Source: Thiohalomonadales bacterium (GTDB lineage: Bacteria; Pseudomonadota; Gammaproteobacteria; RBG-16-57-12). Taken from it: a DNA stretch of 64,000 nucleotides. Shown here piece by piece: positions 1,575 to 54,206 of the stretch. A program made the translations under genes and the position numbers. The stretch covers positions 88,529 through 152,528 of the forward strand of contig JBNKQQ010000024.1 of the NCBI GenBank assembly GCA_050295955.1. The letters run 5' to 3'. Under the pieces are notes generated by a model that was given only the letters and a program-made list of their open reading frames with translations, had not been told where the DNA came from and ran no database searches. The stretch's first letter is position 1. Each line of letters starts with the position of its first letter.

Positions 1575-1590
1575 TATACAGTGGTTCGGT

Positions 1591-2544: not shown

Positions 2545-2636
2545 CAGAACTCTCCTCCAATATCACTTTGCGGCAAAACAGGATAAAATCACTAAAGCCA
2601 GTTATTTTACGACAATCAGAAAGACATCGATAGCTA

Positions 2637-8693: not shown

Positions 8694-8844
8694 GAATGTG
8701 GCCTTTTTGGTTGAAATGCAGAGAGTTAGTTTAGCAAGCTGTTACGTGCAATTCATTAATCATCGGTTTCTAAAGCTCTGCACCACCACACCGATAAATG
8801 TTGCATATCACCCTACGATAAGAACACTAGCTAAAGGCCGCATT

Positions 8845-10014: not shown

Positions 10015-10017
10015 CAA

Positions 10018-10042
10018 GAAAGGCCGCAGATGCGGCCTTTCT
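10018..10042. terminator. Bidirectional rho-independent terminator between pilU (+) and giant gene 1 (-)
   Basis: GAAAGGCCGCA-GAT-GCGGCCTTTC perfect palindromic stem with T-rich flanks on both strands. Confidence 0.6.
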
Positions 10043-10068
10043 TGTATTTATGGTACCTAGCACAGCGC

Positions 10069-13000
10069 CTAATGATAGGTCACATTGATAGTGGGTCGCT
10101 CAGACACATTACCATATTCACTAGAACGGAAACGCATACCATTCGTTGTTCCCGCCGAACGGATAATCAGGCCATTGTTTGGCACACTGCCATCAATCCA
10201 GCCTTGCACCAGCTCAACACCCGCATCATTCAGCATCAACGTGTACTTGTGGGCATCCGTAGGTATTACACTACCCATTAATACTCCTTGATTAGACTCG
10301 ATATTGGCACTGTTCCAGGTCACGCTGGACTCATCCCAACTCCCCTTCATCGCATACAGATTGTATTGACCAGAACTGGTATCGTAGACATCGAGTTCAA
10401 TCTCAGTAGCGACTACCTTGGCATTGCTTGGGATAGAGGAGAGATCCCACTTCAGCAACCCAACCAACTCGCTAGAGCTACTCAAAGCATCAGCAGTGAC
10501 ATATTCATAATCACCATAGTTGGTATTAGCGCTTCCACTCTTGATACGGCTATCTTGGGTACCACTATAACCATTCACACCATCAGTCAGCTGAACCATG
10601 GTTGGCATCACTGCTGGGGTAGCATCCTGTTTATAGGTTACAGACAGAATCGGACGATTAGCCGCAATATCATCTTCGCGTGAATCGAAGATAATACCAT
10701 CCTCACTACCCATGGTACGGATCATCAAGCCGTGATTCTCACCACCATCAACCCACTGCTGTACCAGCGCAATACCACGATCATTGAAGCTAACGGTATA
10801 TTTACCGAATGCCGCTTCCTCTATGATACCAATCAACACCCCTTGACTAGCATCGACATCAGCATTGTTCCAAGTCGCTGTCATCTCTGACCATGCACCA
10901 TGCATTGCGAACAGACCATACTGGCCACCATCGTTATAGATATTGAGGGTCAGATCTGCACCGGTAATCACTGCACCTTGTGGTACAAACGACATATCCC
11001 ACTTCAGTAGTGATACATACTCATCGTAATTGGTATCCCGTCCGTCAGCTTGCACTCGTGTGCTAGCACCATGGTTAGTATTCGCATCACCTGCTGCTAC
11101 ATAGGTATCCTGAACATCTGCCCGTTCCACAATAACACTGTTGCCACCGTTATAGCCGGTACCACATGGCAGCTCTTCACCCACCACACAGAAGCCAGAC
11201 TTTGGATCCATCATGCTATTCTGGTAGATATGTGGCGTCCAGAATGGCAGATCCACCGTCACATCATCACCATCACGGGTGTATACCTCATTCCAGAACT
11301 CTGTCATTTGAACAGATTGCGGCAACTTAAAGTTGAACATATTGGGGGCAGGGATAAAGGCTTCACTACCCGTATAGGTCATCTCAAAGTGACCACAATA
11401 ACCACCGTTCCACACGTTATGCGCAATAAACTCAATACTCAGGTTAGTGAAATCAGGTATGTACTGGGTATAGGCCTGTGGCTCAGATTTACCGCCAGTA
11501 CAGAAACCAAACTGCTCGTTACTCAGTGTTGGACTGTTGGCTTCAACATCCTGCATCCAGGATGGGAAGATCACAGTCACCTGATTGCCATTACGCTGCA
11601 CATCACCATTCCAGGTACCGTTAAATTGGGTATCCTCTGACAGAGTGAAGTGAACACCGTATGGGTATGGCTTAACACTGCTCGTAGTATTGGTCACGAC
11701 GATATCCGCACAGTAACCAGTACTCCATGAATCCCAGATATCCAGAGAATATTCCAATCCAGCCAGCTCACTCTCTACCAGCCTGATTTGATCTTCTGGA
11801 CTAAGTTGAGTATCAGGATCCGTACATACCTGGCCACCATCAGCCTTAGTGGTGATACCAAAGGAATCACTCACATTCCCTACGGTAAGTACAGCTGAAA
11901 CCATGGTGCTGAACATCGCCGATGAGTTACGTTGAACTTCGATTACATCACCTTCGATGATAGAACCAGCAGTAGTCGTCCAGCTACCACCGTTAACACG
12001 GTACTCACCATCCACAATCGATACCGATACCGCCACATTGATGCCGGTAATCATAATGGCATTTGAGAGATACGACGTATTTAGCTCTGCGTTAGTGACA
12101 TCATCGAAGCTGAATGGATCAGGGGTAATATCCTCAACCATCGCCTTGGTGGTGATATCAAAGGCATCGCTTTGGTTACCAATCGTCAGTGTTGTAGATA
12201 CTGTGGTTGTGTAGCTGGTCGAAGAATTACGACGCACCGCCACGGTATCGCCCGCATTCACATTGCCAGCCGCGGAGGTCCACGCCCCACCGTTTACACT
12301 GTACTGACCGTTCACGATGCTGATCACCACGGCCTGCTCAGGACCGCTTACGGTAATGGTGTTGGAGGTGTAGCTGGTGTTCAGCTCCGCATTCAGCTTA
12401 TCGATGAAAGTGAAGGCATTCACGTTGGTCACCGCCGCACGCGTGGTGATATCAAACGCATCGCTCACACCACCGATGGTTAAAGTAGTCGATACCATTG
12501 TCTCGTAGCTGGTCGAAGAGTTACGACGTACGGCCACCGTATCGCCAGCATTCACATTACCGGCCGCGGAAGTCCACGCCCCACCGTTTACACTGTACTC
12601 ACCGTTAGCAATGCTGATAGAGACCGCCTGCTCAGGACCGCTTACGGTAATGGTGTTGGAGGTGTAGCTGGTGTTCAGCTCCGCATCCACCTTATCAATG
12701 AAGGTAAATGGATTCACACTGTTCACCGCCGCACGCGTGGTAATATCAAACGCATCACTTACCCCACCAATGGTCAGGTTGGTAGATACCGCTGTCTCGT
12801 AGCTAGTCGATGAGTTACGACGTACGGCCACCGTATCGCCAGCATTCACATTACCGGCCGCGGAAGTCCACGCCCCACCGTTTACACTGTACTCACCGTT
12901 AGCAATGCTGATAGAGACCGCCTGCTCGGGACCGCTTACGGTAATGGTGTTGGAGGTGTAGCTGGTATTCAGCTCCGCATCCACCTTATCAATGAAGGTA

Positions 13001-16000
13001 AATGGATTAACAGTAGTGACTGCTGCACGGGTAGTGATATCGAAAGAATCACTTTGATTACCAATGGTAAGCACTACAGAAGCGGTTGTCTGATACTGAT
13101 TGGCGGATAATCCACGTACGGTAACGGTATCACCTGCTTTTACCGTGCCTGCCGCTACCATATAGGTACCACCATTAATGCTGTATGAACCATTCACAAT
13201 AGAAATAGCAACGGCTTGCTCAGGTCCACTGACAACAATGCTATTAGAGTTGTAGCGCGCATCCAGCTCCGCGTCTGTTTTATCCACAAAGCTAAATGGG
13301 TCAACATTGAGGTTAGCCGCACGGGTGGTAATATCAAAGCTGTCACTTTGTGTACCAATGGTAAGTGTTACCGACTGCATACTTTCATAGGTACTTGCAG
13401 AGTAACGGCGCACAGTCACAACATCACCGGCGCTGATAGTGCCAACCTCATTGCTCCATACCCCACCATTAATGCTGTACTGTCCGCCAACAACCGAGAT
13501 CGCTACAGGCTGCTCAGGACCACTTACCGTGATGCCATTAGAAACATAAATGGTATTCAGTTCTGCATCCGTTACATCGATAAAATTGAATGGTGTAACA
13601 CTTAGCATCGCACTACGGGTAGTGATATCAAAGGAGTCGCTTTGATCACCGATAGTCAACGTTGCAGATACGGTGGTTTCATAGCTGCTCGAAGAGGTAT
13701 TACGAACCGCTATCGTATCACCAGTCACCACTCGGCTTGGCATTGAAGTCCATGCACCACCATTAACACTAAATTCACCACTGCTAATGGTCACGAACAC
13801 AGGCAACTCAGGCCCAGTCACCGTAATAACATTGGAAGAGTAACTTGTATTCAGCTCTGCATTGGTCACATCGATAAAACTGAATGGATCAACAGTCATA
13901 ACACCAGCACGGGTTGTAATATCAAAGGCATCGCTTTGATTTCCAATGGTCAGCGTAGCGGAAACACTGATTTCATAATCATCTCCGGAACGACGACGTA
14001 CACTCACTGAATCGCCCGCGCTAATGCTGCCTATAGCCGATGTCCATGCACCACCATTGATACTGTACTCGCCACCCACGATAGAGATGGAGACTGGCTG
14101 CTCGGGGCCTGTTACAGCAATGGAATTGGAAGTGTAGAAAGTGCTCAGTTCTGCATTAGTCACATCCATGAAGCTGAATGGATTAACACTCAAATTTGCA
14201 ACACGAGTAGTGATATCGAAGCTATCGCTTTGATTACCAATCGTCAGCATTGCGGAAACTGCAGTTTCATAGTTACTCGCAGAGTTACGACGAACAACAA
14301 CCGTATCACCAGCATTCACGCTACCTACTGCAGACGTCCATGCACCACCGTTTACGCTGTATTGACCATTTACAATGCTAATAGCGACCGCCTGCTCTGG
14401 ACCACTGACGGTAATACCATTCGAGCTGTACAAGGTATTCAGATCGGCATCGACCTTATCCACAAAGGTAAATGGTGCAACACTCAAATTGGCTGCACGG
14501 GTCGTAATGTTATAGACCCCCATTTTATTGCCTACCATCAGTGAAACAGCAGTCGTTGTCTCATAATTGCTGGAGGCTATACCACGCACCCGCACACTAT
14601 CACCGGCATTTACCATACCCGAAGGTAGCCATGCACCACCATTGATACTCATTTCACCGCTGATTGCACTAGCGCTAACCGCGATCTCAGGGCCATTAAT
14701 AATGACACTATTTGAGGTATTGAGAGAGTTCAATTCAACACCGGTCACATCATTGAAGGTAAATGGATTGACATTTAAATTAGGCGAACGGGTGGTGATA
14801 TCAAAGCTGTCGCCTTGGTTACCAATACTCAAAACAACCGAAGTCGTTGCTTCATACTGATCCACTGAAGCACGACCACGCACCGAAACTCGATCACCGG
14901 CACTAATGGTACCTGGAGCCGTCGTCAAAGCACTACCATTAATGGTGTAAGAACCATTAACGATAGAGATACTCACTGGCTGCTCTGGGCCACTCACGGT
15001 AATAAAATTGGAATCATGTTGACTATCCAACTCTGCACCAATCACGTCCTTAAAGGCAAAAGGATCAACATTCAGATTCGCTGCACGGGTAGTGATATCA
15101 AAGCTGTCGCTTTGATTGCCAATGGACAATATGACTGACACCGTTGTTTCATAGGTTGCTGCAGCGCTACGCTGAACTTGAATGGTATCTCCAGCATTAA
15201 CAGTACTCGCTCTATTCATTGGCATATTACCGTTAACACTATAGTAACCACCGACAATGCTGATGCTCACAGGCGCTTCTGGACCACTGACCGTTATGAT
15301 ATTAGAGCTTTCGCCACTATTTGGCTCTACATCAAATTTATCCACAAAGATGAATGGATCGACTGTCAGATCTGCAACGCGGGTGGTGATATCAAAGGCA
15401 TCACTCATCGTACCGATAGTCAGAGTGGTAGAAACCGTTGTCTCGTAAGCCGTTGCAGAGTTACGACGCACTGCCACGGTATCCCCTGCATTCACATTAC
15501 CTGCCGCAGAGGTCCATGCACCACCGTTCTTGCTGTATTCACCGTTAATAACAGAGATCGCAACCGCCTGCTCTGGACCACTTACGGTAATAGTATTCGA
15601 GGTGTAACGGGTATTCAGTTCCGCATCCACCTTATCAATGAAGGTAAATGGATTCACACTGTTCACCGCGGCACGAGTGGTAATATCAAACGCATCACTC
15701 ACCCCACCGATGGTCAAGGTAGTAGAAACCGCTGTTTCATAGCTGGTCGATGAGTTACGACGCACTGCCACAGTATCCCCAGCAATCACATTGCCTGCCG
15801 CGGAGGTCCATACCCCACCGTTCACACTGTACTGACCGTTAACGATGCTGATGGACACGGCCTCCTCAGGGCCACTCACGGTAATGGTGTTCGAGGTATA
15901 GCTGGTGTCCAGCTCCGCATCCACCTTATCGATGAAGGTAAATGGGTTAACGGTAGTGACTGCTGCACGGGTAGTAATGTCAAAAGAATCACTTTGATTA

Positions 16001-17724
16001 CCGATGGTAAGCACTACAGACGCAGCTGTCTGATAGTCATTAGCGGATAATCCACGTACTGTAACGATATCACCTGCTTTTACCGTACTTGCTGCAGCCA
16101 TGTAAGTCCCACCATTAACGCTGTATGAGCCATTAACGATAGAGATAGCAACGGGCAACTCGGGACCACTCACGACAATACTATTAGAGTTGTACCGAGT
16201 ATTTAGCTCTGCATTGGTTTTATCTACGAAAGTGAATGGGTTTACATTAAGGTTGGCAGCACGAGTGGTGATGTCAAAGTTATCGCTCTGATTACCTACA
16301 GTAAGGGTAACCGACAAGGTGCTCTCATAAGCATTAGGAGAGTAACGACGTACACTAATGCTATCTCCCGCACTCGCGGTGCCCGATCCATTTTTCCAAA
16401 TACCACCGTTGAGGCTATATTGGCCATTCACAACCGAAAAGCTAACAGGCGCTTCAGGTCCTTTCACTGTAATAGTATTTGAAACAGTAAGCTGATTTGG
16501 CTCGGCATCGATCACATCAATAAAGCTAAATGGCTCAACATTAAGATTTGGCTCACGAGTGGTGATATCAAACGACTCTGAGAACGTTCCCACGGTCAAG
16601 ACAGCAGAAACCGTATCGCTGTATTGAGAAGAAGAGGTGCGACGCACTGTGATTTGATCACCCGCAACCACAGTGCTATTAGCAGATGACCAGCCACGAC
16701 CACTAATGAAGTACTCACCGCCAACGATCGAAATCGGTATTGCGGTATTAACATCGGTGATCGTTATGACATTCGAAAGATAATTGGTATTAACTTCGGC
16801 ATTTAAGACATCAGTCAACACAAATGGCTGAGGCGTTTGATCTATAGCTTGAGTCGTGATGTCAAAGCTATCCCACACGCCGGCGATATTTAACACCGCA
16901 GAGGTAGTTTCCCCAAAGCCTGTCGCAGAATAGTTGCGCACCTCAACGAGATACCCGGATGCAACATTGTAAGGCGCACCAGCAGGTAGCCACATGGTCC
17001 AGCCACTACCGTTATATACACGGTATTGGCCTGCACTTAGCGTCAGAGGAAATGATGTCACATCCCCCTGCTGGGCGATATTGACTTGAATTTGGTTGGA
17101 AGCATAACGGGTATTCTGCGCAGCATTGGTAACATCCGTAAACTGGATTGGCTGCAGTGTAGTACATTTCAGATCAGGATTAGGGTTACAGGCCTGGGCA
17201 CCACCATCAACGGCTAATGTTGCCTTGGCAAGAGTCAGACGAAATGCACCTGGGTGATAAGGGTCGACCTCATCCCAGTCAATATCCACCATCACTTCGA
17301 GGCCATTGTTGACCTGCTCCTTGATACCTGGAATATGGGTTAGATCAAAAGTACTAAAACTCCACTCATCGGGAGCCGCTGCCAACATGCCCACTTCGAC
17401 CCACTGGCCAGCCACTTTGACCAGAATCTTGTCATCTTCACTTTTGTAACCGACGGCATCAGTGTAATCCACATCAAAAGCGGCGATTTGTAGTGTAATA
17501 CTCTGATGGTCACCAATAATCGGATTATGTTGCCAACTCCAATCTTCATAAGGGCGACGCCAATAGGGATCATTGTATTTTTGTGCATCACTAGGAACAA
17601 AATATTCCGTAGCGGTGTTATTGGCGTATTCCTGAACATCGGTAACGGGTTGCGCTTGAGCCACAGCGATCGATGCAAGCAAAAGGAGAATCATTGCAAA
17701 TGGGCTAAATGCAGACTTCATCAT
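10069..17724 (-). CDS. Giant secreted modular protein 1 (2551 aa): signal peptide, unique N-domain, about 18 Ig-like tandem repeats, two CBM2 modules, two DNRLRE-like domains
   Basis: Signal peptide MMKSAFSPFAMILLLLASIAVAQA, preceded by AGGA 5 nt upstream of ATG. About 18 copies of a ~96-aa repeat (PF.F.D...AELNT.Y.SN.ITVSGPE..V.ISIVNG.YSVNGG.W...G.V.AGD.V.VRR.S...Y.T.VS..LTIG..SD.FDITTRAA). Two CBM2-like modules follow (W.TGYCADIVVTNTTSS...FGFC and WNGGYCGHFEMTYTG...SGFCVVGEELPC), then two ~180-aa beta-sandwich domains ending RPILSVTYK and RPTINVTYH. Confidence 0.85.
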   Translation of the reverse strand: MMKSAFSPFAMILLLLASIAVAQAQPVTDVQEYANNTATEYFVPSDAQKYNDPYWRRPYEDWSWQHNPIIGDHQSITLQIAAFDVDYTDAVGYKSEDDKILVKVAGQWVEVGMLAAAPDEWSFSTFDLTHIPGIKEQVNNGLEVMVDIDWDEVDPYHPGAFRLTLAKATLAVDGGAQACNPNPDLKCTTLQPIQFTDVTNAAQNTRYASNQIQVNIAQQGDVTSFPLTLSAGQYRVYNGSGWTMWLPAGAPYNVASGYLVEVRNYSATGFGETTSAVLNIAGVWDSFDITTQAIDQTPQPFVLTDVLNAEVNTNYLSNVITITDVNTAIPISIVGGEYFISGRGWSSANSTVVAGDQITVRRTSSSQYSDTVSAVLTVGTFSESFDITTREPNLNVEPFSFIDVIDAEPNQLTVSNTITVKGPEAPVSFSVVNGQYSLNGGIWKNGSGTASAGDSISVRRYSPNAYESTLSVTLTVGNQSDNFDITTRAANLNVNPFTFVDKTNAELNTRYNSNSIVVSGPELPVAISIVNGSYSVNGGTYMAAASTVKAGDIVTVRGLSANDYQTAASVVLTIGNQSDSFDITTRAAVTTVNPFTFIDKVDAELDTSYTSNTITVSGPEEAVSISIVNGQYSVNGGVWTSAAGNVIAGDTVAVRRNSSTSYETAVSTTLTIGGVSDAFDITTRAAVNSVNPFTFIDKVDAELNTRYTSNTITVSGPEQAVAISVINGEYSKNGGAWTSAAGNVNAGDTVAVRRNSATAYETTVSTTLTIGTMSDAFDITTRVADLTVDPFIFVDKFDVEPNSGESSNIITVSGPEAPVSISIVGGYYSVNGNMPMNRASTVNAGDTIQVQRSAAATYETTVSVILSIGNQSDSFDITTRAANLNVDPFAFKDVIGAELDSQHDSNFITVSGPEQPVSISIVNGSYTINGSALTTAPGTISAGDRVSVRGRASVDQYEATTSVVLSIGNQGDSFDITTRSPNLNVNPFTFNDVTGVELNSLNTSNSVIINGPEIAVSASAISGEMSINGGAWLPSGMVNAGDSVRVRGIASSNYETTTAVSLMVGNKMGVYNITTRAANLSVAPFTFVDKVDADLNTLYSSNGITVSGPEQAVAISIVNGQYSVNGGAWTSAVGSVNAGDTVVVRRNSASNYETAVSAMLTIGNQSDSFDITTRVANLSVNPFSFMDVTNAELSTFYTSNSIAVTGPEQPVSISIVGGEYSINGGAWTSAIGSISAGDSVSVRRRSGDDYEISVSATLTIGNQSDAFDITTRAGVMTVDPFSFIDVTNAELNTSYSSNVITVTGPELPVFVTISSGEFSVNGGAWTSMPSRVVTGDTIAVRNTSSSSYETTVSATLTIGDQSDSFDITTRSAMLSVTPFNFIDVTDAELNTIYVSNGITVSGPEQPVAISVVGGQYSINGGVWSNEVGTISAGDVVTVRRYSASTYESMQSVTLTIGTQSDSFDITTRAANLNVDPFSFVDKTDAELDARYNSNSIVVSGPEQAVAISIVNGSYSINGGTYMVAAGTVKAGDTVTVRGLSANQYQTTASVVLTIGNQSDSFDITTRAAVTTVNPFTFIDKVDAELNTSYTSNTITVSGPEQAVSISIANGEYSVNGGAWTSAAGNVNAGDTVAVRRNSSTSYETAVSTNLTIGGVSDAFDITTRAAVNSVNPFTFIDKVDAELNTSYTSNTITVSGPEQAVSISIANGEYSVNGGAWTSAAGNVNAGDTVAVRRNSSTSYETMVSTTLTIGGVSDAFDITTRAAVTNVNAFTFIDKLNAELNTSYTSNTITVSGPEQAVVISIVNGQYSVNGGAWTSAAGNVNAGDTVAVRRNSSTSYTTTVSTTLTIGNQSDAFDITTKAMVEDITPDPFSFDDVTNAELNTSYLSNAIMITGINVAVSVSIVDGEYRVNGGSWTTTAGSIIEGDVIEVQRNSSAMFSTMVSAVLTVGNVSDSFGITTKADGGQVCTDPDTQLSPEDQIRLVESELAGLEYSLDIWDSWSTGYCADIVVTNTTSSVKPYPYGVHFTLSEDTQFNGTWNGDVQRNGNQVTVIFPSWMQDVEANSPTLSNEQFGFCTGGKSEPQAYTQYIPDFTNLSIEFIAHNVWNGGYCGHFEMTYTGSEAFIPAPNMFNFKLPQSVQMTEFWNEVYTRDGDDVTVDLPFWTPHIYQNSMMDPKSGFCVVGEELPCGTGYNGGNSVIVERADVQDTYVAAGDANTNHGASTRVQADGRDTNYDEYVSLLKWDMSFVPQGAVITGADLTLNIYNDGGQYGLFAMHGAWSEMTATWNNADVDASQGVLIGIIEEAAFGKYTVSFNDRGIALVQQWVDGGENHGLMIRTMGSEDGIIFDSREDDIAANRPILSVTYKQDATPAVMPTMVQLTDGVNGYSGTQDSRIKSGSANTNYGDYEYVTADALSSSSELVGLLKWDLSSIPSNAKVVATEIELDVYDTSSGQYNLYAMKGSWDESSVTWNSANIESNQGVLMGSVIPTDAHKYTLMLNDAGVELVQGWIDGSVPNNGLIIRSAGTTNGMRFRSSEYGNVSERPTINVTYH
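11830..16850 (-). repeat. Coding tandem repeat array (about 288-bp units, about 18 copies) with a nested segmental duplication
   Basis: Adjacent units reach over 95% nt identity (e.g. about 12500..12790 vs about 12800..13010). A roughly 0.9 kb block around 12480..13400 recurs at about 15420..16340 with roughly 85-90% identity. Coordinates are approximate. Confidence 0.8.
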
Positions 17725-17924
17725 CTTATCCTGTCTAAAAAGAGCAACTAGCGGGTAGCTTTATTTTTGATATTTTATGCAGCCACGCTACACAAAAAAT
17801 ACCTTAATCTAAGGGGGTTAATGTAAATCAGAATAGGAAAAAAGTTCTGTGACTATGTTACATAAAAGTTAAATTTTCGGAAAAAGGATGATAAGACACG
17901 CCTCCAAAGGAAAATGCCGTGCAA

Positions 17925-17965
17925 TAAAAAAGCCCCCCTCAGCTATGGCTGAAGGAGGCTTATTT
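17925..17965 (-). terminator. Rho-independent terminator of giant gene 2
   Basis: On the minus strand: AGCCTCCTTCAGC-CATAG-GCTGAGGGGGGCT followed by TTTTTTT. Confidence 0.5.
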
Positions 17966-18005
17966 CAACAATTACTTGAATGTAAATGTTGTCCTTTTAA
18001 CCTGC

Positions 18006-22481: not shown

Positions 22482-22914
22482 ATTGGACCCCCTAGTATCC
22501 AAATAACGCCGTTAGGTCATCCTTAACTATATGCGCTGTAAATGCGTGTATATCCTCCGCACCTCTATCCTTAATGAGACGAAAGCCATACAAATTTTAA
22601 TGTAATAACTTTAACACTTAGGTCATATCAAAATGAATAATATTTCTATAGTTTTGATATTTTTTTCTAAAGATTTTTCTTGAATGACCGATAGGACCTA
22701 TCAAATTGTATCTAAGAAAATAATATTTTTAATATTTTCAATGGCCTATTACTTAATCAGCAAGTCCTGATAGAGTTGTTGTTTGGATAATCTATTTTCT
22801 AAAAACACCGAGAAAACGGCAACATTTGCCCTCGCAACCACGATTTAAATGGGCCACTTTATCGTTCTATATCATGGACAATCAGCTCATATTCAAGCAT
22901 CGCCTCTATACAAA

Positions 22915-22950
22915 AAAGCCTCCCTTGATAAATCACCAAGAGAGGCCTGA
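22915..22950 (-). terminator. Rho-independent terminator of giant gene 3
   Basis: On the minus strand: GCCTCTCTTGGTGATTTATCAAGGGAGGC followed by TTTTTTG. Confidence 0.5.
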
Positions 22951-22953
22951 AGC

Positions 22954-25900
22954 CTACTTTGATTCAATATGACAAGGCAGTAGTTCACCTACTACACAGA
23001 TACCTGTTTCAATATCAATACTTCCGCCTTGGTTGATATGAGACAACCAGCTTGGCAGCGTGAAGGTCACATTGCTGCCATCACGGGTGTAGCTACCCGT
23101 CCAAGCATCGGTAATCGCCACGGATTGATCCAGTGTGAAACCGATGGCGTTCGGTGCTGGAATATAAGCATCGTTGCCATTATAGCTAGCCTGGAAGCTG
23201 CCGCAGTACCCCCCACTCCACTGATCCAGCAGGCTGAAGGTGAGATCAACCTGGGTGAAGTCTGGAACATAGTGGTTCAGAGTATTGGGTTCCGAGCCAC
23301 CCATGACACAGAAGCTAAAGCTACCATTCGCAGGGGCTTGGCTGTTAGCTGGAATATCGGCAGCGCCCGCAGGGAAAATCGCCGTCACGGTATTGCCATT
23401 GAGCTGCACATCCGCATCCCATGTTCCGGTGATTTTTGCCTTATTCGGCAGATCAAACTGCACACCGTATGGGTAAGCTTTTGCTTCATTGGAGGTATTG
23501 GTCACCACCAGCTGCGCACAATATTCTCGTCTGCTAGAGCTGGTAATATTCAAGGAATACTCAATCCCAGCCAATGAAGCTTGGATCGCTGCGGCTTGTT
23601 CAGCAGAGGTAGGCGCCTGATACGACACACTACACGCTTGCCCTACTGGAGCCGCCTTGGTGGTGATATCAAACGAATCACTCACCCCATCTACCGTGAG
23701 GATCGCAGATACACTAGCACCATATTCAGCAGCAGAGATAGCACGCACCTCTACACTATCCCCTGCGCTGACGGTTTGCACTTGGTCAGTCCACACACCA
23801 CCATTCACACGGTATTCGCCACCAGTGACAGAGGCTTCAACACCAATACCGGTACCACTTAAGGTAACGCTGTTGGAGGTGTATAGCTGACCCAGCTCAG
23901 CATCTACCACATCGCTAAAGCTGAATGCAGCGATCGCCGCCGCTTGTTCCTCTACGCGATAGGTTACTTTGAAGCTTGGGCGATGAGCTCTCTTGCGCTG
24001 CTCACTGGTATTGATAACAACACCATCAGTGGTGCCCATGCTACGGATCATCAAACCACCGTTGCCACCCTGTAGCCAGCTTTGAACCAAATCAACACCG
24101 GTAAAGTTAAGCTTGATGGTATGATAACCGGCACCTGAAGGCTCCCACGCGGCCAGCAGCTTGCCCTGGTTCGCATCAATACTGGCACTATTCCAAGTCA
24201 CAGTATCTTCAGTCCACCCACCGTTCATGGCGTACAGACCATAGAGATCCCAAGCTGCATCGGTCACTTCTACCGTGATTTCAGCACTGGTGATAATGGC
24301 ATCCGCAGGAATAGAGGAAACATCCCACTGCATCAGTGCTACCCCTTCACCATAACCGGAACTGTTTAGCGCAGCATCGCCATCAGCCTCCATGGTTCTA
24401 TCACCACCGAAGTTACTGGTCGGTACACCACTGGCTACCCAGCTATCTTGAGCGCCATTGTAGCCGTCCAAACCATTCTGGAAGGTCACAGTATATTGGT
24501 TCTCAATCTCAGTACCGTAGTTACAAGGCAGCTTCTTACCGGTCGCACAGAAGCCATAGATGGTCGCCTCTTGCTCTGGTGTCAGATGAGAAATCCAATC
24601 AGCACTATCAACGCTAACCAATTCACCTTCCTGCACAAAGTCACCATTCCAGCTTTCAGTGATCACACTGCCTTCAGGTAGGCGGAAGTTGAAGCGATCT
24701 GGGGTCACGCTATATGACTTGTTACCACTATAACGAGCCTTGAATTGGCCACAGAAGCCACTCATCCACTGGTTAGTTACTTCAAACAGTACCGCAACTT
24801 CTTCAAAGCTAGGTACGTAATGCTCAAAGTTAGTTGGCTCAGAGTGGCCCTCCACACAGTAGCCGAACGGGCTGGTATCGGTGGCACCGGCACCAATTCG
24901 TGACTGCCAATCTGGATAGATCACGGTCACCTTATCGCCTTCGCGAATCGCATCACCATTCCAGGTCTCAGGGCCATCTACACCATAGCGGAACTGAGTA
25001 TCTTCAGGCAGAGTGAAGATCACACCGTAAGGATAGTGATGACTGCTATTACCGTTGTTAACAACATTTACGGTTGCACAGTAACCGGTAGTCCACTGAT
25101 CTGTGATGACAAAGTTGAAACTCAGATCATCGATCTTCGGATCTTTCACACGACGTACGATCTGGCCTGGTGGTAGTTTCTTATAGCTACCTGGATCAAC
25201 ACAGGATTGCGGATCAACCGGATCATCAATGCCACGGGTGGTCACATCAAATGAATCACTCTGCGTACCCACGGTCAGGATGGTGGATACCGTTGTTTCA
25301 TAAGCTGTAGATGACGTCTTACGGACTTCAATCATGTCACCCGCGACAACCGTACCCACATCAGAAGTCCACGCACCACGGTTAATACTGTATTCACCAT
25401 CAACAATGGAGACTTCAACCGAAGCTTCAATACCGCTCACTGTAATAGTGTTAGAGATGTAAGAGATATCCAATTCTGCATTGAGAATATCAATGAAGGT
25501 GAACGGATCTACACCTGGAATATAGGCCACGGTCGTAATATCAAAGGCATCACTCACCGTACCGACAGTCAGTACCGCACTCACGGCAGTGACATACTCG
25601 GTTGAGGAATTGCGACGTACTTCGATTACATCACCGTTGAGGGCAACACCCACACTACTGGTCCATGCACCACCATTGATGCGGTACTCACCGCCCACGA
25701 TAGAGACATCTGCCTCGGTGTTGATACCAGTAATGGTAACGACATTGGAGACGTAGGAGGTATTAAGCTCTGCATCAAACACATCGATCAAGCTAAACGC
25801 ATTCGGCGTAATATCGGCGGCAATCGTAGTGATATCAAACGCATCGCTATAGGTGCCCACGATCAGTGTAGCAGCGACTGATGTGCTAAATTGAGTTGAT

Positions 25901-28900
25901 GAATTGCGGCGCACTTCCACCACATCGCCATCCAACACCGTACCTGCTGCCGAAGTCCACGAGCCACCATTCACACGATACTCACCGCCCACAATCGAGA
26001 TTGCGGTTGTGGTGTTGATACCGGTAATGGTGACCGTATTAGAGGTATACGAGGTATCCACTTGTGCATCAGTTACATCGATGAAGCTAAATGGCTCTGG
26101 TGTGATATCCGCGGCAATCGTGGTGATATCAAACGCATCGCTATAGGTACCTACCGTTAAGGTTGCTGCCACAGCAGTGCTGAATTGCGTTGAGGAGTTA
26201 CGACGTACCTCAACCACATCGCCCTCGACTACCGTGCCGTCAAACGACGTCCACGCGCCGCTGTTCACACGATACTCGCCACCAACAATCGATACCGCCG
26301 TTGCGGTATTGATACCGGTAATAGTGACGGTGTTAGAGGTGTATGAGGTATCCACTTCCGCATTGGTCACATCGATGAAGCTAAAGGCATTCGGTGTGAT
26401 ATCCGCGGCAATCGTGGTGATATCAAACGCATCAGAGAAAGTGCCCACGGTCAGTGTTGCAGAAACCTGGGTGCTATGTGTAGTTGATGAATTACGACGT
26501 ACTTCCACTACATCACCATCCACTACGGTTCCCGCAGTAGAAGCCCAAGCGCCACCGTTCACACGATACTCACCACCTACAATCGACACGGCGGTAGCGG
26601 TATTGATACCGGTAATGGTTACCGCATTTGAGGAGTAGGAAGTCTCTAATTCAGCATCGGTCACGTCGATAAAGCTAAACGCATTCGGTGTAATGTCTTC
26701 GGCCTTGGTCGTAATGTCAAAGGCATCGGAGAACGTACCCACGGTCAGCGTTACAGCAACGGCAGTACTAAATTGAGTTGATGAGTTACGGCGAACCTCA
26801 ACCACATCACCCTCTGCTACCGTTCCAACCACTGACGTCCATGCGCCCCCATTCACCCGGTATTCACCAAACACCGCTGATACGGATGTCCCAGCATCGA
26901 TGCCGGTGATAGTAACGGCGTTAGAGGTGTAACTTGTATCCAATTCAGCATCAGTCACATCTACAAAACTAAATGGATTAGGCGTGATATCCGGTGCTTT
27001 AGTGATAACGTGAAAGATACCTATTGCAGCATCATCACCGCCAACACGGAGCGTACAACTCACGTCAGTCTCATATTGAGATGATGAGGTGCGGCGTACA
27101 GCCACCACATCATCGTTCTCTACTGTTCCTGTCACGTTTGTCCACGTACCGCCATTGATGCTGTATTCACACACGGAACTGGCAATAATAATCGGTACAG
27201 AGGTATTAATACCCGTGATGGTCACGCTGTTAGAGGTGTACAGGGTGTATATTTCTGCATCGAATACTGTGTTAAAGATAAGTGGATCAGGCGTATCGTC
27301 TATTGCTTTAGTCGTAATATCAAAGCTATCGGTTTGAGTGCCGATGGTCACCTCAACCGAAACTGTTGTCCCAAAATTTGCCGACGAATTGCGACGCACC
27401 GTGATGGTATCACCCTCAGTAACGGTATCGTGTACTTGGCTGTATGCCACTTGCCAGGCTCCACCATTGATACTGAATTCACCGCCAACAACAGTTAATC
27501 CTGCACCCACTTCAGGGCCAGTCACAGTAATGGTGTTTGAGGTATAAAGCGTACTTAATTCCGCATCGGTCACATCTACGAAGCTGAATGGATCAACGTT
27601 GTTAATCGCTGCACGAGTCGTTATCAGGAACGCATCACTTGCACTGCCAATCATCAACAAAGTTGAGTTACTGGTTAAGAAATTTTCAGATGATAGATTG
27701 CGTACCGTGACGATATCTCCTGCCTCAACGGTACCCGCGGCAGTAGTCCAAGCCCCACTATTAATGCGATATTCGCCACCATTGTTGATGGTTATATTGA
27801 CCGGCACCTCTGGTCCACTCACCGTAATGGCATTGGTCTCATAATAAGTGCTCAGCTCAGCATCAGTAACGTCGACTAAATTAAATGCATCTACTGTGGT
27901 AACAGGCTGACGATTGAAGATGTAGAAAGTCGATGATTCACCACCAATGCTCAAGGTAGCAAACACCGTATCACCCCAATCAGGGCCAGAGATACCACGC
28001 AACTGAATCATGTCACCCTCAACCACATCTTGGTACCCCGTTACCCAGGGGCCACCGTTAATGCTGTACTCAGCCTGAGCATTGTTGGTCGGTACCACTA
28101 AGGCAGATGCAGTGGTATTGATTCCGGTCACCGTAATGGTATTAGATAGGTAGCTAGTGCTGCGCTCCGCATTGGTAATTGAATTTAAAGTGAATGGATC
28201 TGGAGTCGTATCCGGCACAAACTCTTTGGTTGTGATATCAAACGAATCTGAATAGGTGCCTACCGTCAGCACAGCAGAAACCAACGTGCTGTATTGATCC
28301 GAAGAGGTTCGGCGTACGATGAAAGTATCACCTGCCACGACAGTACTTGGGGCTGAAGTCCACGCGCCACCATTCACCGCATACTCGCCACCCACCACAG
28401 AGATCTCTGCGGGTGCATCAATACCCTTAACAGTGATGACGTTGGAGTTGTAATTGGTGCTCACTTCCGCATTCAGTACATCATTCAGGAAGAACGGATC
28501 AGGGGTAAGATCTGGGCCAACAGTCGTAACATTCACCACTTCTGAAACATTACCAATGGTGACGGTAGTACTCGTGGTAGTCGACATAACGGGAGCAGAA
28601 AGTATGCTTAGCGTTACCGTATCATTCTCACCCACAAAACCCGGCATAGCCGTCCACTGACCATCATTAATTTTATAGTAGCCACTGGTGACAGAGATCG
28701 GAAGTTGACGATGAATACCGGTTAACGTCACCGTATTGGAGGGCATATAGGTGTTCAGCGGTGCATCTATAACATCAATGAAGTCGAATACCGGATCCGC
28801 GATGCTGGAGTCGCCGTCGCGCACCACCCATACGTTAGCAATACCGTCCGCGTAGCCCGCATCCGCTTGCATGCCGTAGGTATAGCCAAACCAAATGACT

Positions 28901-29445
28901 TTATTGATAGAGGGAACGTAGGTATCCGTCCAAAACGAATTAACGGAATCCAGGTTATCGAAAGTAACGCCATCTGCAGTTTGATTTTGTAAACAATAGT
29001 TTCCGCCGCTTGGGCACTGACCATAAACACCATTGCGATCACGCATGGAGATGTTGCCAAGTATATTATGGAACATGTAGGCCAGTTCCGAGTAGGCCGT
29101 ATTGGTATTGGAACCGCAGTCACTATTGTCATAGGTAAGGCCTGAATACGAGTCACAACCCGGCTTTAGGGTTAACTCATCCCTAAACTTAGGCAGGCGC
29201 CAGTCATCGTAGCTACGATATACCAAATTATCAGCCCAATCCTTGGCTTCTTGCCAGGTCATACGTCCATCTTCATCATCACCTAGGGTCTTGGACAAAT
29301 CGACGTCTTTAATCCAGGTAATGTTTTGATCAGAGTCATAGACCATGCCACCGCCACGATCATAAAGCTGGGCTTGGGCACTACTGGCTAAAAGAATCAA
29401 GGCGCTAAACAAAAACACAGCGCGTATAGGCTTGGTAAACATCAC
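22954..29445 (-). CDS. Giant secreted modular protein 3 (2163 aa): signal peptide, DUF1566/Lcl-like domain, about 13 Ig-like repeats, CBM2 pair, DNRLRE-like domain, one Ig-like repeat, CBM2 pair
   Basis: Signal peptide MMFTKPIRAVFLFSALILLASSAQA with AGGAGA RBS. DUF1566 motif ...MTWQEAKDWADNLVYRSYDDWRLPKFRDEL. Repeats are linked by TPDPF/TPNAF. A CBM2 pair sits at about 24530..25220, a DNRLRE-like domain at about 23960..24530, one more repeat at about 23660..23930, and a second CBM2 pair at the C-terminus (22957..23620). The protein ends ...LPCHIESK without a terminal DNRLRE-like domain. Confidence 0.85.
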   Translation of the reverse strand: MMFTKPIRAVFLFSALILLASSAQAQLYDRGGGMVYDSDQNITWIKDVDLSKTLGDDEDGRMTWQEAKDWADNLVYRSYDDWRLPKFRDELTLKPGCDSYSGLTYDNSDCGSNTNTAYSELAYMFHNILGNISMRDRNGVYGQCPSGGNYCLQNQTADGVTFDNLDSVNSFWTDTYVPSINKVIWFGYTYGMQADAGYADGIANVWVVRDGDSSIADPVFDFIDVIDAPLNTYMPSNTVTLTGIHRQLPISVTSGYYKINDGQWTAMPGFVGENDTVTLSILSAPVMSTTTSTTVTIGNVSEVVNVTTVGPDLTPDPFFLNDVLNAEVSTNYNSNVITVKGIDAPAEISVVGGEYAVNGGAWTSAPSTVVAGDTFIVRRTSSDQYSTLVSAVLTVGTYSDSFDITTKEFVPDTTPDPFTLNSITNAERSTSYLSNTITVTGINTTASALVVPTNNAQAEYSINGGPWVTGYQDVVEGDMIQLRGISGPDWGDTVFATLSIGGESSTFYIFNRQPVTTVDAFNLVDVTDAELSTYYETNAITVSGPEVPVNITINNGGEYRINSGAWTTAAGTVEAGDIVTVRNLSSENFLTSNSTLLMIGSASDAFLITTRAAINNVDPFSFVDVTDAELSTLYTSNTITVTGPEVGAGLTVVGGEFSINGGAWQVAYSQVHDTVTEGDTITVRRNSSANFGTTVSVEVTIGTQTDSFDITTKAIDDTPDPLIFNTVFDAEIYTLYTSNSVTITGINTSVPIIIASSVCEYSINGGTWTNVTGTVENDDVVAVRRTSSSQYETDVSCTLRVGGDDAAIGIFHVITKAPDITPNPFSFVDVTDAELDTSYTSNAVTITGIDAGTSVSAVFGEYRVNGGAWTSVVGTVAEGDVVEVRRNSSTQFSTAVAVTLTVGTFSDAFDITTKAEDITPNAFSFIDVTDAELETSYSSNAVTITGINTATAVSIVGGEYRVNGGAWASTAGTVVDGDVVEVRRNSSTTHSTQVSATLTVGTFSDAFDITTIAADITPNAFSFIDVTNAEVDTSYTSNTVTITGINTATAVSIVGGEYRVNSGAWTSFDGTVVEGDVVEVRRNSSTQFSTAVAATLTVGTYSDAFDITTIAADITPEPFSFIDVTDAQVDTSYTSNTVTITGINTTTAISIVGGEYRVNGGSWTSAAGTVLDGDVVEVRRNSSTQFSTSVAATLIVGTYSDAFDITTIAADITPNAFSLIDVFDAELNTSYVSNVVTITGINTEADVSIVGGEYRINGGAWTSSVGVALNGDVIEVRRNSSTEYVTAVSAVLTVGTVSDAFDITTVAYIPGVDPFTFIDILNAELDISYISNTITVSGIEASVEVSIVDGEYSINRGAWTSDVGTVVAGDMIEVRKTSSTAYETTVSTILTVGTQSDSFDVTTRGIDDPVDPQSCVDPGSYKKLPPGQIVRRVKDPKIDDLSFNFVITDQWTTGYCATVNVVNNGNSSHHYPYGVIFTLPEDTQFRYGVDGPETWNGDAIREGDKVTVIYPDWQSRIGAGATDTSPFGYCVEGHSEPTNFEHYVPSFEEVAVLFEVTNQWMSGFCGQFKARYSGNKSYSVTPDRFNFRLPEGSVITESWNGDFVQEGELVSVDSADWISHLTPEQEATIYGFCATGKKLPCNYGTEIENQYTVTFQNGLDGYNGAQDSWVASGVPTSNFGGDRTMEADGDAALNSSGYGEGVALMQWDVSSIPADAIITSAEITVEVTDAAWDLYGLYAMNGGWTEDTVTWNSASIDANQGKLLAAWEPSGAGYHTIKLNFTGVDLVQSWLQGGNGGLMIRSMGTTDGVVINTSEQRKRAHRPSFKVTYRVEEQAAAIAAFSFSDVVDAELGQLYTSNSVTLSGTGIGVEASVTGGEYRVNGGVWTDQVQTVSAGDSVEVRAISAAEYGASVSAILTVDGVSDSFDITTKAAPVGQACSVSYQAPTSAEQAAAIQASLAGIEYSLNITSSSRREYCAQLVVTNTSNEAKAYPYGVQFDLPNKAKITGTWDADVQLNGNTVTAIFPAGAADIPANSQAPANGSFSFCVMGGSEPNTLNHYVPDFTQVDLTFSLLDQWSGGYCGSFQASYNGNDAYIPAPNAIGFTLDQSVAITDAWTGSYTRDGSNVTFTLPSWLSHINQGGSIDIETGICVVGELLPCHIESK

Positions 29446-30053
29446 ACTCTCCTAACAACCTGGAGTCCTACCGCGGATGTTATTAGTTCGTTCAAACGCC
29501 CGCTAAGCACTTTGCGATCCTACGCAAAGAAAATACAGTTAGCTAACAGACAGTTGTTTTATAATATTTGATCAAAGGCCAAGTCCCAGCGTCTGTGATA
29601 AAGTCACACAACTCTCAATTAACCCAATTTTTTTTTAAAGTTTTCACCTCTCCTGCCGACCGGCGATCAGTCGGTCACCCTAAAACATAAAAATTTCAAT
29701 AAAAATCAATTAATTGAGGAAAAATTATCATTATTTGCTAATATATCTTATCTCCTTGGTTAAATCATATACATAGCGATTAAATCGGCAAACATTGCGA
29801 GGAATCTTGTGGTGGCCTGAAGAATAAGAAGATGACTGCAGCAATGCGAAGAAACAAATTGAGGAGTCTCTGAAGAAGCCCAATTGCCATTCTACGCTAT
29901 GATTTTTTACTAAACTCAAACATATCTTACCCACATAGATACGAATACTTAGCGATAGCGGAGCAGTAACTGTGATCGAGAGCCCTGATGAAAACCAAGG
30001 TAGTGACCGGGCCTCTTCAGGGACACCCTAAATCGACACGGCAAGAAAGTAAC

Positions 30054-30085
30054 ATAAAAAAAGGCCGCAAACGCGGCCTCTCTTT
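30054..30085 (-). terminator. Rho-independent terminator of hemE
   Basis: On the minus strand: GAGGCCGCGTTTGCGGCC followed by TTTTTTT. Confidence 0.6.
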
Positions 30086-30115
30086 ATCGAAGTGCCTAGA
30101 AGCACATTCGCTTAT

Positions 30116-54113: not shown

Positions 54114-54206
54114 CTTGTTGTAACACCTTATAAAATAGTTGCTTGATCTTTTATGCGCCCAATCTATCATAGAAAGCCGTTTTTCGCTGATAAGTCGAAG
54201 ATTAAG

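Follow-up and report, generated by a model that had tools for sequence, protein, structure and literature searches.

Three giant neighboring proteins joining CBM2 pairs, DNRLRE/CBM96 modules and Ig-like stalks, putative glycan tethers of an uncultured bacterium

Three neighboring, paralogous and intact minus-strand open reading frames of 4.5-7.7 kb in an uncultured bacterium, each uninterrupted, encode giant proteins in which an N-terminal head and a long repeat stalk are joined to paired CBM2 modules and DNRLRE/CBM96 modules. We favor, with modest confidence, the reading that these are non-enzymatic, multivalent, Sec-exported glycan-binding tethers that would bridge to crystalline β-glycan, a proposal whose basis is that the aromatic triad of CBM2a is kept, together with analogy. 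Tying a cell or biofilm to cellulose- or chitin-like surfaces seems their most likely role because carbohydrate-binding modules are combined with a lectin-like tip and no enzyme domain. The parts are mostly known and the combination is what is new: it was found in no other protein of the databases searched, and the original prediction had not recognized it as a described family either.

All coordinates refer to the 64-kb window, the whole stretch of DNA analyzed here, and all features of the block given below are on the minus strand except the two hairpins at its edges, which are listed without a strand. Gene 1 (10069-17724) is a 2551-aa ORF identical to the database singleton P0002. Gene 2 (18006-22502) is a 1498-aa ORF, deposited as 1491 aa from Met8 (22481) and identical to singleton P0001, and gene 3 (22954-29445) is a 2163-aa ORF with a GTG start, deposited as 2162 aa and identical to singleton P0003. 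These ORFs match the predicted same-strand genes for proteins of 2551, about 1491 and 2163 aa, and the predicted glnE/pilU and hemE flanks were likewise found: hemE borders the block at one end, and glnE and a pilT/U-family gene lie at the other. Each gene of the block carries a strong terminator of its own at the 3′ end. Intrinsic terminators directly follow gene 3 (22916-22948; 15-bp stem and T run) and gene 2 (17930-17961; 14-bp stem and T run), and a bidirectional terminator hairpin (10014-10045) separates gene 1 from the pilT/U-family gene at the left edge of the block. The three genes are independent transcription units.

Three sister MAGs have the same flanks without the block. Because hemE and pilT/U are only 55 bp apart in these MAGs, the block is an insertion of ~20 kb, specific to the lineage, relative to the sister genomes. 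The 55-bp spacer of a sister MAG holds a single hairpin. At the right edge of the block, just downstream of hemE, lies a GC-rich hairpin (30055-30086) whose 16-nt core is identical to that of the left-edge hairpin at 14/16 positions. GC3 of the three genes is within the range of neighboring genes. The prediction that the block interrupts Pseudomonas-type synteny was borne out for the insertion but not for the organism: with a GC of 0.49 and a hemE 90% identical to that of Tenderia electrophaga, the host is related to Tenderiales, not Pseudomonas. This lineage is noted for chemolithoautotrophic growth at the surfaces of minerals or electrodes and not for a life on polysaccharides, which counts against the tether reading (bioRxiv 10.1101/2022.05.06.490989).

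The domain map assigns every stretch of the three proteins except the heads. As predicted, each begins with a Sec-type signal peptide, ending by direct reading in AQA, AHA and AQA for genes 1, 2 and 3. In gene 1 the signal peptide is followed by a head of the kind found on PEP-CTERM proteins, 18 repeats, a CBM2 pair and two DNRLRE/CBM96 modules; gene 2 has an Lcl_C-like head, seven repeats, a CBM2 pair and two DNRLRE/CBM96 modules; and gene 3 has an Lcl_C-like head, 12 repeats, a CBM2 pair, one DNRLRE module, one further repeat and a second CBM2 pair. Pfam and NCBIfam gave no match to a catalytic family (E ≤ 0.1), consistent with the predicted lack of a catalytic domain, and neither a transmembrane segment nor a known C-terminal sorting signal was seen. 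Every domain is strongly acidic (pI 4.0-4.9), which counts against glycan tethering.

Pfam CBM_2 (PF00553) scores 37, 39 and 100 bits in genes 1, 2 and 3, all above the gathering threshold (GA) of 24 bits, so the proposed CBM2 identity stands. Genes 1 and 2 each have one fused pair (11164-11826, from Pfam and alignments; 19098-19763, from alignment to 1EXG), in keeping with the two modules predicted per protein, but gene 3 has two pairs and so four modules: pair a (24523-25203; Pfam, alignment), with intact aromatic triads, and pair b (22972-23634; alignment). In the alignment, the equivalents of Cex Trp17, Trp54 and Trp72 are tryptophan in 7/8 modules, including both modules of gene 2; module 1 of gene 3 pair b lacks two of the three aromatic positions and module 2 is intact. 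The intact planar triads predict binding to crystalline β-1,4-glycans such as cellulose or chitin. The fold was checked on a modeled homolog, P0090, which Foldseek matched to the Cex CBM2a (6qfs; target TM 0.65, 30% identity), the EngD CBM2 (3ndy_E; 0.68) and the chitin-binding domain of Chi18aC (2rtt; 0.70). P0090, from another MAG, is a 542-aa "mini" version consisting of a signal peptide, an Lcl_C head, one repeat and a CBM2 pair, indicating that the core of head, stalk and CBM2 pair recurs as a unit.

The modules thus resemble the CBM2a modules of Cex (1EXG/6QFS), EngD (3NDY) and Chi18aC (2RTT) in their above-threshold Pfam match, their fold (target TM 0.63-0.70) and their three aligned surface tryptophans. 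They differ in arrangement: classical CBM2 modules are single units on a catalytic domain, with a disulfide joining the two termini, whereas here fused pairs with a ~20-residue linker stand on proteins without an enzyme. Each module has cysteines in its GYC and FGFC motifs, and one more cysteine flanks the pair on each side, as seen in gene 1. Metagenomic proteins with this "GYC...FGFC" subtype have, by eye, GH5-cellulase-like N-terminal regions and in one case a GH18 DGIDVDWE motif, company that fits a cellulose or chitin ligand.

DNRLRE-like domains were predicted in each protein, and DNRLRE_dom (NF033679; cut-off 34 bits) does score 179, 173 and 76 bits in genes 1, 2 and 3, although gene 3 has a single module. 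The two modules of gene 1 (aa 2196-2365 and 2386-2551; 10072-11139) match in two stretches, the two of gene 2 (18009-19073) also match Pfam CBM96 (PF24517; 83 bits), and that of gene 3 is internal (aa 1666-1828; 23956-24480; 75.7 bits). A profile of these modules (A5) matches 7VBO and 8WAB (E 3.9e-6 and 1.5e-5), so that NCBIfam, Pfam and profile matches place them in one family with TM6-N4 of alginate lyase Dp0100 (7VBO; PMC9971899) and the chondroitin-sulfate-binding module 8WAB (PMC12611786). Those characterized members sit on lyases and bind polyanions through a basic groove, whereas the present modules are acidic, stand mostly as a C-terminal tandem on a non-enzyme and are nearest to modules appended to secreted metallophosphoesterases. 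Alginate binding by TM6-N4 requires K10, K22, K25, K27, K31 and R36 (PMC9971899); these are mostly not kept in our alignment, where the K27 column is an invariant Asp. Because the polyanion-binding basic residues are mostly absent, the ligands of characterized members cannot be transferred to the CBM96 modules or to the heads.

The gene 2 head (aa 31-217; 21852-22412), which has a four-cysteine insertion, matches PF07603 (Lcl_C/DUF1566) over model positions 2-117 of 117 (31.3 bits, E 2.8e-7), and its DWRLP motif lines up with a genuine Lcl_C domain. The gene 3 head (aa 26-211; 28813-29370; 28.3 bits) is 67% identical to it. The predicted DUF1566 heads thus have full-length matches, but these fall below the GA of 34.9 bits. 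This sub-threshold assignment, together with an unreliable head model (pLDDT 27-49), counts against the tether reading. Gene 1 was predicted to have a different N-terminal domain, and its head (aa 25-190; 17155-17652) indeed has no match in Pfam or PDB; only five homologs were found (45-50% identity), each a protein of ~208 aa made of this domain and a PEP-CTERM motif, which suggests a domain that PEP-CTERM proteins otherwise expose at the cell surface. The closest analog of the other two heads, Legionella pneumophila Lcl, is a T2SS-exported adhesin with a stalk and a DUF1566, C-type-lectin-like, glycan-recognizing head (PMC11162425). Its stalk is a collagen triple helix, not Ig-like repeats, and its C-terminal, trimeric, disulfide-free head uses a Lys/Arg surface to bind sulfated glycosaminoglycans (PMC11162425), whereas the present heads are N-terminal and acidic (net charge -13 and -14 in genes 2 and 3).

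The stalks comprise 38 repeats: 18 in gene 1 (11845-17145), seven in gene 2 (19782-21851) and 13 (12+1) in gene 3. Repeats were correctly predicted, but not as 8-18 near-identical units of ~96 aa: the unit is 98 aa (TRF period 294 nt), and pairwise identity in the unit alignment runs from 27% to 96% with a mean of 49%. Units r4-r6 of gene 1 resemble r14-r16, indicating a block duplication. The suggested structure prediction of one unit gave an AF2 model with pLDDT 98 and an Ig-like β-sandwich fold. The repeat has no convincing match among Pfam or NCBIfam models, and yet its family occurs widely, with 9,245 cluster representatives and as many as 34 copies in one protein. Elsewhere the repeat connects esterases, an S8 protease, a GH19 domain, FecR or Lcl_C, as expected of a common stalk element. 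From typical domain sizes, stalks of 7, 13 or 18 domains would span ~25-75 nm; the three different lengths are the sole basis for the predicted "ruler".

Giant Gram-negative RTX adhesins such as LapA and MpIBP also have Ig-like extender chains. They lack an N-terminal Sec signal, leave by type I secretion via a C-terminal RTX signal and have an N-terminal plug that holds them in the outer membrane. The present proteins differ in having Sec signal peptides, and neither Pfam nor NCBIfam reported an RTX repeat family for them. What they share with these proteins and with FrhA, another giant repeat adhesin of the RTX type (bioRxiv 10.1101/2025.09.08.674952), is a long repeat chain that would hold ligand-binding domains off the cell.

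The multivalent, non-catalytic, long-stalk design would also suit cross-linking of cells and matrix in a biofilm, with the CBMs binding a self-made exopolysaccharide such as bacterial cellulose and the heads the envelope, rather than a foreign surface. Biofilms on solid electron donors are essential to Tenderiales, in which genes for polysaccharide export are conserved (bioRxiv 10.1101/2022.05.06.490989), and the window encodes glycosyltransferases (429-3740) as well as a GGDEF-EAL protein (58940-62161). However, the glycosyltransferases lie at least 6 kb away past housekeeping genes, the window has no cellulose-synthase (bcs) or other matrix-polysaccharide operon, the leaders have no c-di-GMP riboswitch, and sister MAGs, presumably biofilm formers as well, lack the block. 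We consider such a scaffold unlikely, though the strongest of the alternatives.

CBM2 and CBM96 are usually appended to glycoside hydrolases and lyases (PMC9971899), and the enzymatic company of this CBM2 subtype and of the nearest DNRLRE relatives could indicate CBM-only proteins that coat, disrupt or capture cellulose or chitin and a second polymer, aiding enzymes encoded elsewhere or heterotrophic growth. The window contains no GH, PL or AA gene, the phylogenetic neighborhood is chemolithoautotrophic, and lectin-like heads on stalks of 7-18 Ig-like domains are traits of adhesins, not of enzyme helpers, making this role doubtful. Somewhat less probable still is attachment by a host-associated lineage, with the tethers binding chitin or cellulose in the tube, cuticle, tunic or cell wall of a metazoan or alga. 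This is a narrower form of the tether reading and not strictly exclusive of it, and the three stalk lengths together with the two kinds of head would serve different distances and co-ligands. An insertion of ~20 kb confined to one lineage is expected of a niche-adaptation locus, the CBM2a-type triads are intact, and 16S sequences near Tenderiales are reported as probable metazoan symbionts (bioRxiv 10.1101/2022.05.06.490989); but no host signal was seen, and the functional evidence equals that for a general tether and is no stronger. Long repetitive genes are prone to mis-assembly, and DUF1566 is a known target domain of diversity-generating retroelements, but a non-functional locus, whether an assembly artifact, decaying repeats or a variable, retroelement-diversified receptor-binding protein, is very improbable given three uninterrupted ORFs of this length, each with a proper signal peptide and terminator, GC3 like that of the neighbors, repeats diverged enough on average to make assembly collapse unlikely, and no reverse-transcriptase family match among the window ORFs scanned.

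For the glycan tether we favor, the closest functional analog is Vibrio cholerae GbpA, an elongated, modular secreted protein that bridges chitin and the Vibrio surface, its terminal domains binding chitin and others the bacterial surface (PMC3257281). It has only four domains, with a CBM33-type chitin-binding domain 1 and a different C-terminal chitin-binding module (PMC3257281). It lacks a long repeat stalk, CBM2, CBM96 and DUF1566 and has no sequence relationship to the three proteins. CBM33 has since been reclassified as AA10 LPMOs. We hypothesize that the three proteins most plausibly work like GbpA, bridging cell and substratum. They would be exported, most plausibly by a type II secretion system, although no T2SS genes lie within the 64-kb window; one end would then attach to a surface of insoluble polysaccharide and the other to a second glycan or to the envelope of the producing cell, so that cells or biofilm matrix may be tied to cellulose- or chitin-containing substrata.

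The three giant genes lie on the minus strand at 10069-17724 (gene 1; an ORF of 2551 aa, 2550 aa in the protein collection), 18006-22502 (gene 2; 1498 aa, 1491 aa in the collection) and 22954-29445 (gene 3; 2163 aa, 2162 aa in the collection), and each protein forms a singleton cluster in the 5.8-billion-protein collection, where the three are assigned to an NCBI contig of 168 kb. A Sec signal peptide, read from the sequence, stands at the start of proteins 1, 2 and 3, ending in AQA, AHA and AQA, respectively, which predicts that all three are exported. No lipobox Cys follows the cleavage site in any of them, and we saw neither a second hydrophobic segment nor a familiar C-terminal sorting motif. 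The Sec signals in all three proteins speak against RTX/type I adhesins, and neither Pfam nor NCBIfam reports an RTX repeat family at E ≤ 0.1. The same two libraries returned no catalytic family at this threshold, consistent with the original prediction, which had described the proteins as lacking a catalytic domain. Only the heads remain unassigned in the domain map, and the predicted layout is that of very long Ig-like chains that carry several carbohydrate-binding modules on one end and a lectin-like domain on the opposite one. The finding itself is genuine and, for the most part, had been well described at the outset. Judged from their sequences, the proteins are of a known kind, namely modular, non-catalytic, CBM-bearing and adhesin-like, and we favor with moderate confidence the reading that they are general tethers or adhesins. 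Alternatively, they could serve as a scaffold for a self-made matrix, which we consider rather unlikely.

A strong hairpin and T-run terminator is found within about 50 nt after each giant gene. Gene 2 is preceded by an AT-rich leader of 451 nt (22503-22953, GC 0.34), gene 3 by one of 670 nt (29446-30115, GC 0.40) and gene 1 by an AT-rich intergenic region of 281 nt. Because each gene has its own terminator and its own AT-rich upstream region, we conclude that the triad comprises three separate transcription units. Only weak sigma-70-like sites are present in the gene 2 and gene 3 leaders, at 22732-22705 and 29791-29764. No regulatory RNA, including a c-di-GMP riboswitch, was matched in the leaders at the Rfam gathering score, and the hits at E ≤ 1 were noise. 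The two leaders may contain regulatory elements.

The stalk-coding regions repeat with a period of 294 nt at the DNA level, corresponding to 38 units, each ~98 aa long; genes 1, 2 and 3 contain 18, 7 and 12+1 of them, respectively. These Ig-like units had been described as near-identical, a view that does not hold across the set: pairwise identity among the 38 averages 49%, ranging from 27% to 96%, and near-identity is restricted to a few adjacent repeats and, in gene 1, to a single block of three. In this block, repeat units r4-r6 (14790-15671) duplicate units r14-r16 (11850-12731), with unit-to-unit protein identity of 87-93%. Since this identity far exceeds the 49% mean, the duplication indicates recent internal growth of the gene 1 stalk.

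We searched exhaustively for the stalk repeat with an HMM over 1.84 billion cluster representatives and obtained 9,245 proteins at a cut-off of E ≤ 1e-3, of which 2,139 also pass E ≤ 1e-30; 5-34 copies are present in many of them. Elsewhere the repeat joins unrelated cargo, such as esterases, FecR, GH19, an S8 protease and beta-propellers. Carried by 9,245 representatives and linking such varied cargo, the stalk element is therefore common; it has no convincing match to any Pfam or NCBIfam model. In the database protein P0168 (2163 aa), an S8 protease is followed by 14 stalk repeats and then by a C-terminal Lcl_C domain scoring 92 bits, and in P0064 (875 aa) stalk repeats are followed by Lcl_C. 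The occurrence of both arrangements shows that the pairing of stalk and DUF1566 recurs with varied cargo.

The original identification of CBM2 and DNRLRE modules is borne out, as all three proteins exceed the cut-offs for both families. Pfam CBM_2 (PF00553) scores 37, 39 and 100 bits in genes 1, 2 and 3, compared to a gathering threshold of 24, with two, two and four CBM_2 stretches, respectively; the gene 2 pair corresponds to aa 914-1135. The two modules of each pair are fused by a linker of roughly 20 residues. Every module has a Cys in its GYC motif and another in its FGFC motif, and each of the four pairs is bracketed by two extra Cys, one upstream and the other downstream, a pattern that suggests putative internal disulfides plus a clamp. 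In a phmmer alignment to Cex CBM2a (1EXG), Trp residues stand opposite Cex Trp17, Trp54 and Trp72, the surface aromatics that form the planar cellulose- or chitin-binding face. Seven of the eight modules keep all three positions. Four of six Trp columns are invariant across the alignment of CBM2 pairs, and the other two are missing from one module alone, the first of gene 3 pair b. The CBM2a binding face is, on this alignment, conserved in the three proteins. In gene 3 pair b (22972-23634), replacement of two Trp by Arg and Gly leaves the first module with one of the three aromatics; this module may have degenerated or become re-specialized. The second module of the pair is intact.

The CBM2 fold, a beta-sandwich in the solved modules, was checked on P0090, a small homolog that shares 40-44% identity with the window segments aligned to it and was modeled with those segments as alignment rows. 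Its CBM2 region is predicted with pLDDT values of 76-87. Foldseek matched this region to 6qfs, 3ndy_E, 2rtt and 1exg at target TM scores of 0.60-0.70; these matches represent the CBM2a of Cex, the CBM2 of EngD and, from Chi18aC, a CBM2 that binds chitin.

Run against 185,579 species genomes, the CBM2-pair profile gave a single distant, enzyme-linked locus (L002), in which one MAG carries the Cys-bearing CBM2 subtype on an enzyme-like protein. The corresponding metagenome scan gave 35 loci, all at 22-38% identity, and those inspected resemble, by eye, GH5-type or GH18 enzymes. The metagenomic form of this "GYC...FGFC" subtype occurs as two copies with a linker between them (L003, L005 and L007). 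The N-terminal regions of the carriers resemble GH5 cellulases, and one carrier has the GH18 motif DGIDVDWE, again as judged by eye. In loci L003-L005, a Cys- and Asp-rich "CSDGIDNDGDGLTDFPADPGC" element lies ahead of each CBM2 copy. As the original prediction had noted, then, CBM2 modules normally decorate enzymes: the subtype sits on GH5-like and GH18-type proteins and on the L002 protein. Because the same subtype is found on GH5-like and GH18-motif proteins (by eye), cellulose or chitin is supported as the ligand of the triad's CBM2 pairs. This company of enzymes also brings up the possibility that the giant proteins are accessory to polysaccharide degradation, which we regard as improbable. 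The closest copy of the fused pair outside the triad (54% identity) is in P0075, a non-catalytic protein of 535 aa, where it lies behind a beta-propeller-like region and a thrombospondin-type-3-like, Asp-rich stretch (by eye).

The DNRLRE modules, of which genes 1 and 2 have two each and gene 3 a single internal one, score 179, 173 and 76 bits in genes 1, 2 and 3 with NF033679 (DNRLRE_dom; cut-off 34). Pfam files the DNRLRE domain as CBM96, a link also made by the paper that founded CBM96 (PMC9971899), and PF24517 (CBM96) scores 83 bits in gene 2 against a threshold of 26. A profile of the five modules (A5) matches 7VBO (E 3.9e-6), which is the alginate-binding TM6-N4 (PMC9971899), and 8WAB (E 1.5e-5), which is described as a chondroitinase module that binds chondroitin sulfate (PMC12611786). 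Six basic groove residues of TM6-N4 (K10, K22, K25, K27, K31 and R36) are essential for alginate binding (PMC9971899). With the TM6-N4 numbering fixed by that paper's landmarks Ser63-66 and Glu67, alignment to 7VBO shows that each triad module retains at most one of the six: the K27 position is an invariant Asp, and the R36 position is Tyr, Phe, Leu or Gly. All five modules are acidic (net charge -6 to -16), and their nearest sequence relatives are found on secreted metallophosphoesterases, not on lyases. Because the basic residues of TM6-N4 are mostly replaced and the modules are acidic, transfer of ligands from the solved CBM96 members is unjustified. Membership in CBM96 stands on these profile matches; alginate specificity should not be assumed.

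Genes 2 and 3 have a common head of 187 aa, 67% identical between them, whose net charge is -13 in one protein and -14 in the other. The original prediction had called these heads DUF1566 domains. In favor of this, they match the whole Lcl_C/DUF1566 model (PF07603; E 2.8e-7 and 2.4e-6) around an insertion of ~60 aa that contains four Cys, and they show the family hallmarks W..A...NL..G..DWRLP and a C-terminal VW.VRDGD; against it, their scores of 31.3 and 28.3 bits fall below the gathering threshold of 34.9. An hhalign comparison with the bona fide Lcl_C domain of P0168 (92 bits) aligned only the 27-column W..A...NL..G..DWRLP core. An AF2 model of the head from P0090 was of low confidence (pLDDT 27-49), and a profile of this head type had no match among PDB sequences. 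By sequence, the heads are probably Lcl_C/DUF1566 domains. The DUF1566-containing domain of Lcl is C-type-lectin-like and trimeric and binds sulfated glycosaminoglycans via a basic surface (PMC11162425), whereas the heads of the triad are acidic. Overall, the labels "alginate-binding" and "GAG-binding" are unsafe here, as the CBM96 and DUF1566 modules mostly lack the ligand residues of characterized members. Targeting of brown-alga cell walls (cellulose by CBM2, alginate by CBM96 and fucoidan by Lcl_C) was dropped as the leading idea because the modules are acidic and polyanion-binding residues are mostly lost. We consider a specifically host-directed version of the tether a little less probable again than an accessory role in degradation.

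The head of gene 1 (aa 25-190) is of a different type, with no relative in Pfam or the PDB. Only five homologs were found in the database, all of ~208 aa, and in all five the head domain is followed by a PEP-CTERM sorting signal. In gene 1 the repeat stalk occupies the position of this segment, and the protein has no hydrophobic C-terminus. A divergent DNRLRE module was considered for this head and rejected (hhalign probability 0.1%).

As general tethers or adhesins, the proteins would be secreted by the T2SS, by analogy with Lcl, which uses this system (PMC11162425). The CBM2 pairs would bind crystalline cellulose or chitin, and the CBM96 modules and heads would bind other, non-polyanionic ligands. 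The resulting bridging role would be comparable to that of GbpA, to which we liken it (PMC3257281).

The C-terminal 590 aa of proteins 1 and 2 are 72% identical, proteins 2 and 3 have the head in common, and the two CBM2 pairs in gene 3 show 35-46% identity to one another and to those of gene 2. These relationships point to duplication and module shuffling, not recent, as the origin of the triad. A search of 5.8 billion proteins found no full-length relative beyond the three themselves; the remaining matches covered at most 50% of the query, through repeats only. Orthologous triads, a possibility raised in the original prediction, were likewise missing from this search. No other protein combined the CBM2 pair with DNRLRE when we searched with the C-terminal 579 aa, so the combination that had been put forward as unrecognized is indeed without a second example in the collections searched. 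The closest design is P0090 (542 aa, from another MAG), in which a signal peptide is followed by an Lcl_C head, a single repeat and a CBM2 pair, and which represents a minimal version of the triad design. The module combination is unique in these collections and the lineage unexpected, with parts that are largely known. An artefact or a DGR target is hardly credible as an explanation of the triad.

The block is flanked on the left by glycosyltransferase genes, an ORF without assignment, ilvE, glnE and a pilT/U-family ATPase and on the right by hemE, gltD, gltB, an unassigned 442-aa ORF, a dGTPase gene, aroB, aroK and pilQPONM. The window's hemE shares 90% identity with its Tenderia electrophaga counterpart and 94.9% with the hemE of three "Gammaproteobacteria bacterium" MAGs (GCA_021647245.1, GCA_024278815.1 and GCA_021648105.1; GC 0.495), whose flank proteins are 73-95% identical to the window's. 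These sister MAGs have the order gltB, gltD, hemE, pilT/U, glnE and ilvE, with a 55-bp spacer containing one hairpin between hemE and pilT/U, and the giant genes are absent between the exact flanks. Because the sister MAGs keep the same flanks without the giant genes, we interpret the ~20 kb block as a lineage-specific insertion or expansion. The proposed interruption of synteny is thereby upheld, although the organism is a relative of Tenderiales and the synteny is not of the Pseudomonas type. In Tenderia electrophaga-type contigs, other genes follow hemE. GC3 of the three genes (0.46-0.48) falls within the range of neighboring genes and so gives no compositional sign of recent horizontal transfer.

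Several smaller observations concern the surroundings of the block. GC-rich hairpins at 10014-10045 and 30055-30086 bracket it, and their cores (GGCCGCAGATGCGGCC and GGCCGCAAACGCGGCC) match at 14/16 positions; the sister MAG locus L041 has a single, different hairpin in the 55-bp spacer between hemE and pilT/U. The two bracketing hairpins may go back to duplication of an ancestral terminator, or their resemblance may be coincidental. As listed, the ORF of the pilT/U family (8686-10014, plus strand; 442 aa, GTG start) overlaps the glnE start and, since it is ~50 residues longer than the 392-aa orthologs in the sister MAGs, its true start is probably downstream. The 442-aa ORF between gltB and the dGTPase gene (37498-38826, minus strand) has no NCBIfam match; in relatives, a protein of 518-535 aa with AAA_22 and SPOR domains occupies the syntenic position. 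At 54153-58081 (plus strand), two ORFs of 445 and 276 aa without NCBIfam matches come after genes for a GldA-like ABC ATPase and a GldF-like permease, and together these look like a putative gliding-type ABC module in a gammaproteobacterium.

We tentatively propose a more specific picture, itself rather doubtful, in which the triad is an attachment organ that an uncultured, Tenderiales-related chemolithoautotroph has acquired recently. The tethers would come in three graded lengths, with 7, 13 and 18 Ig-like domains, and would fasten the cell to chitin or cellulose, either of a living host or of a surface of biogenic origin, through a disulfide-bracketed double-CBM2 unit not described before; they would also include two families without a curated Pfam or NCBIfam model (the 98-aa repeat and the PEP-CTERM-type head). 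CBM96 and the DUF1566-like head would be for neutral or cationic glycans, unlike the polyanions of their relatives.

Three elements deserve curation and structural study: the 98-aa stalk repeat, found in 9,245 cluster representatives without a convincing Pfam or NCBIfam model; the small head domain common to gene 1 and PEP-CTERM surface proteins; and the fused, cysteine-bracketed double-CBM2 unit. If the tether reading is true, CBM2 and CBM96 modules, usually viewed as enzyme appendages, would have been recruited to a purely adhesive role. The lineage is otherwise known from minerals and electrodes, and the triad would then hint at an unrecognized link between it and chitinous or cellulosic surfaces.
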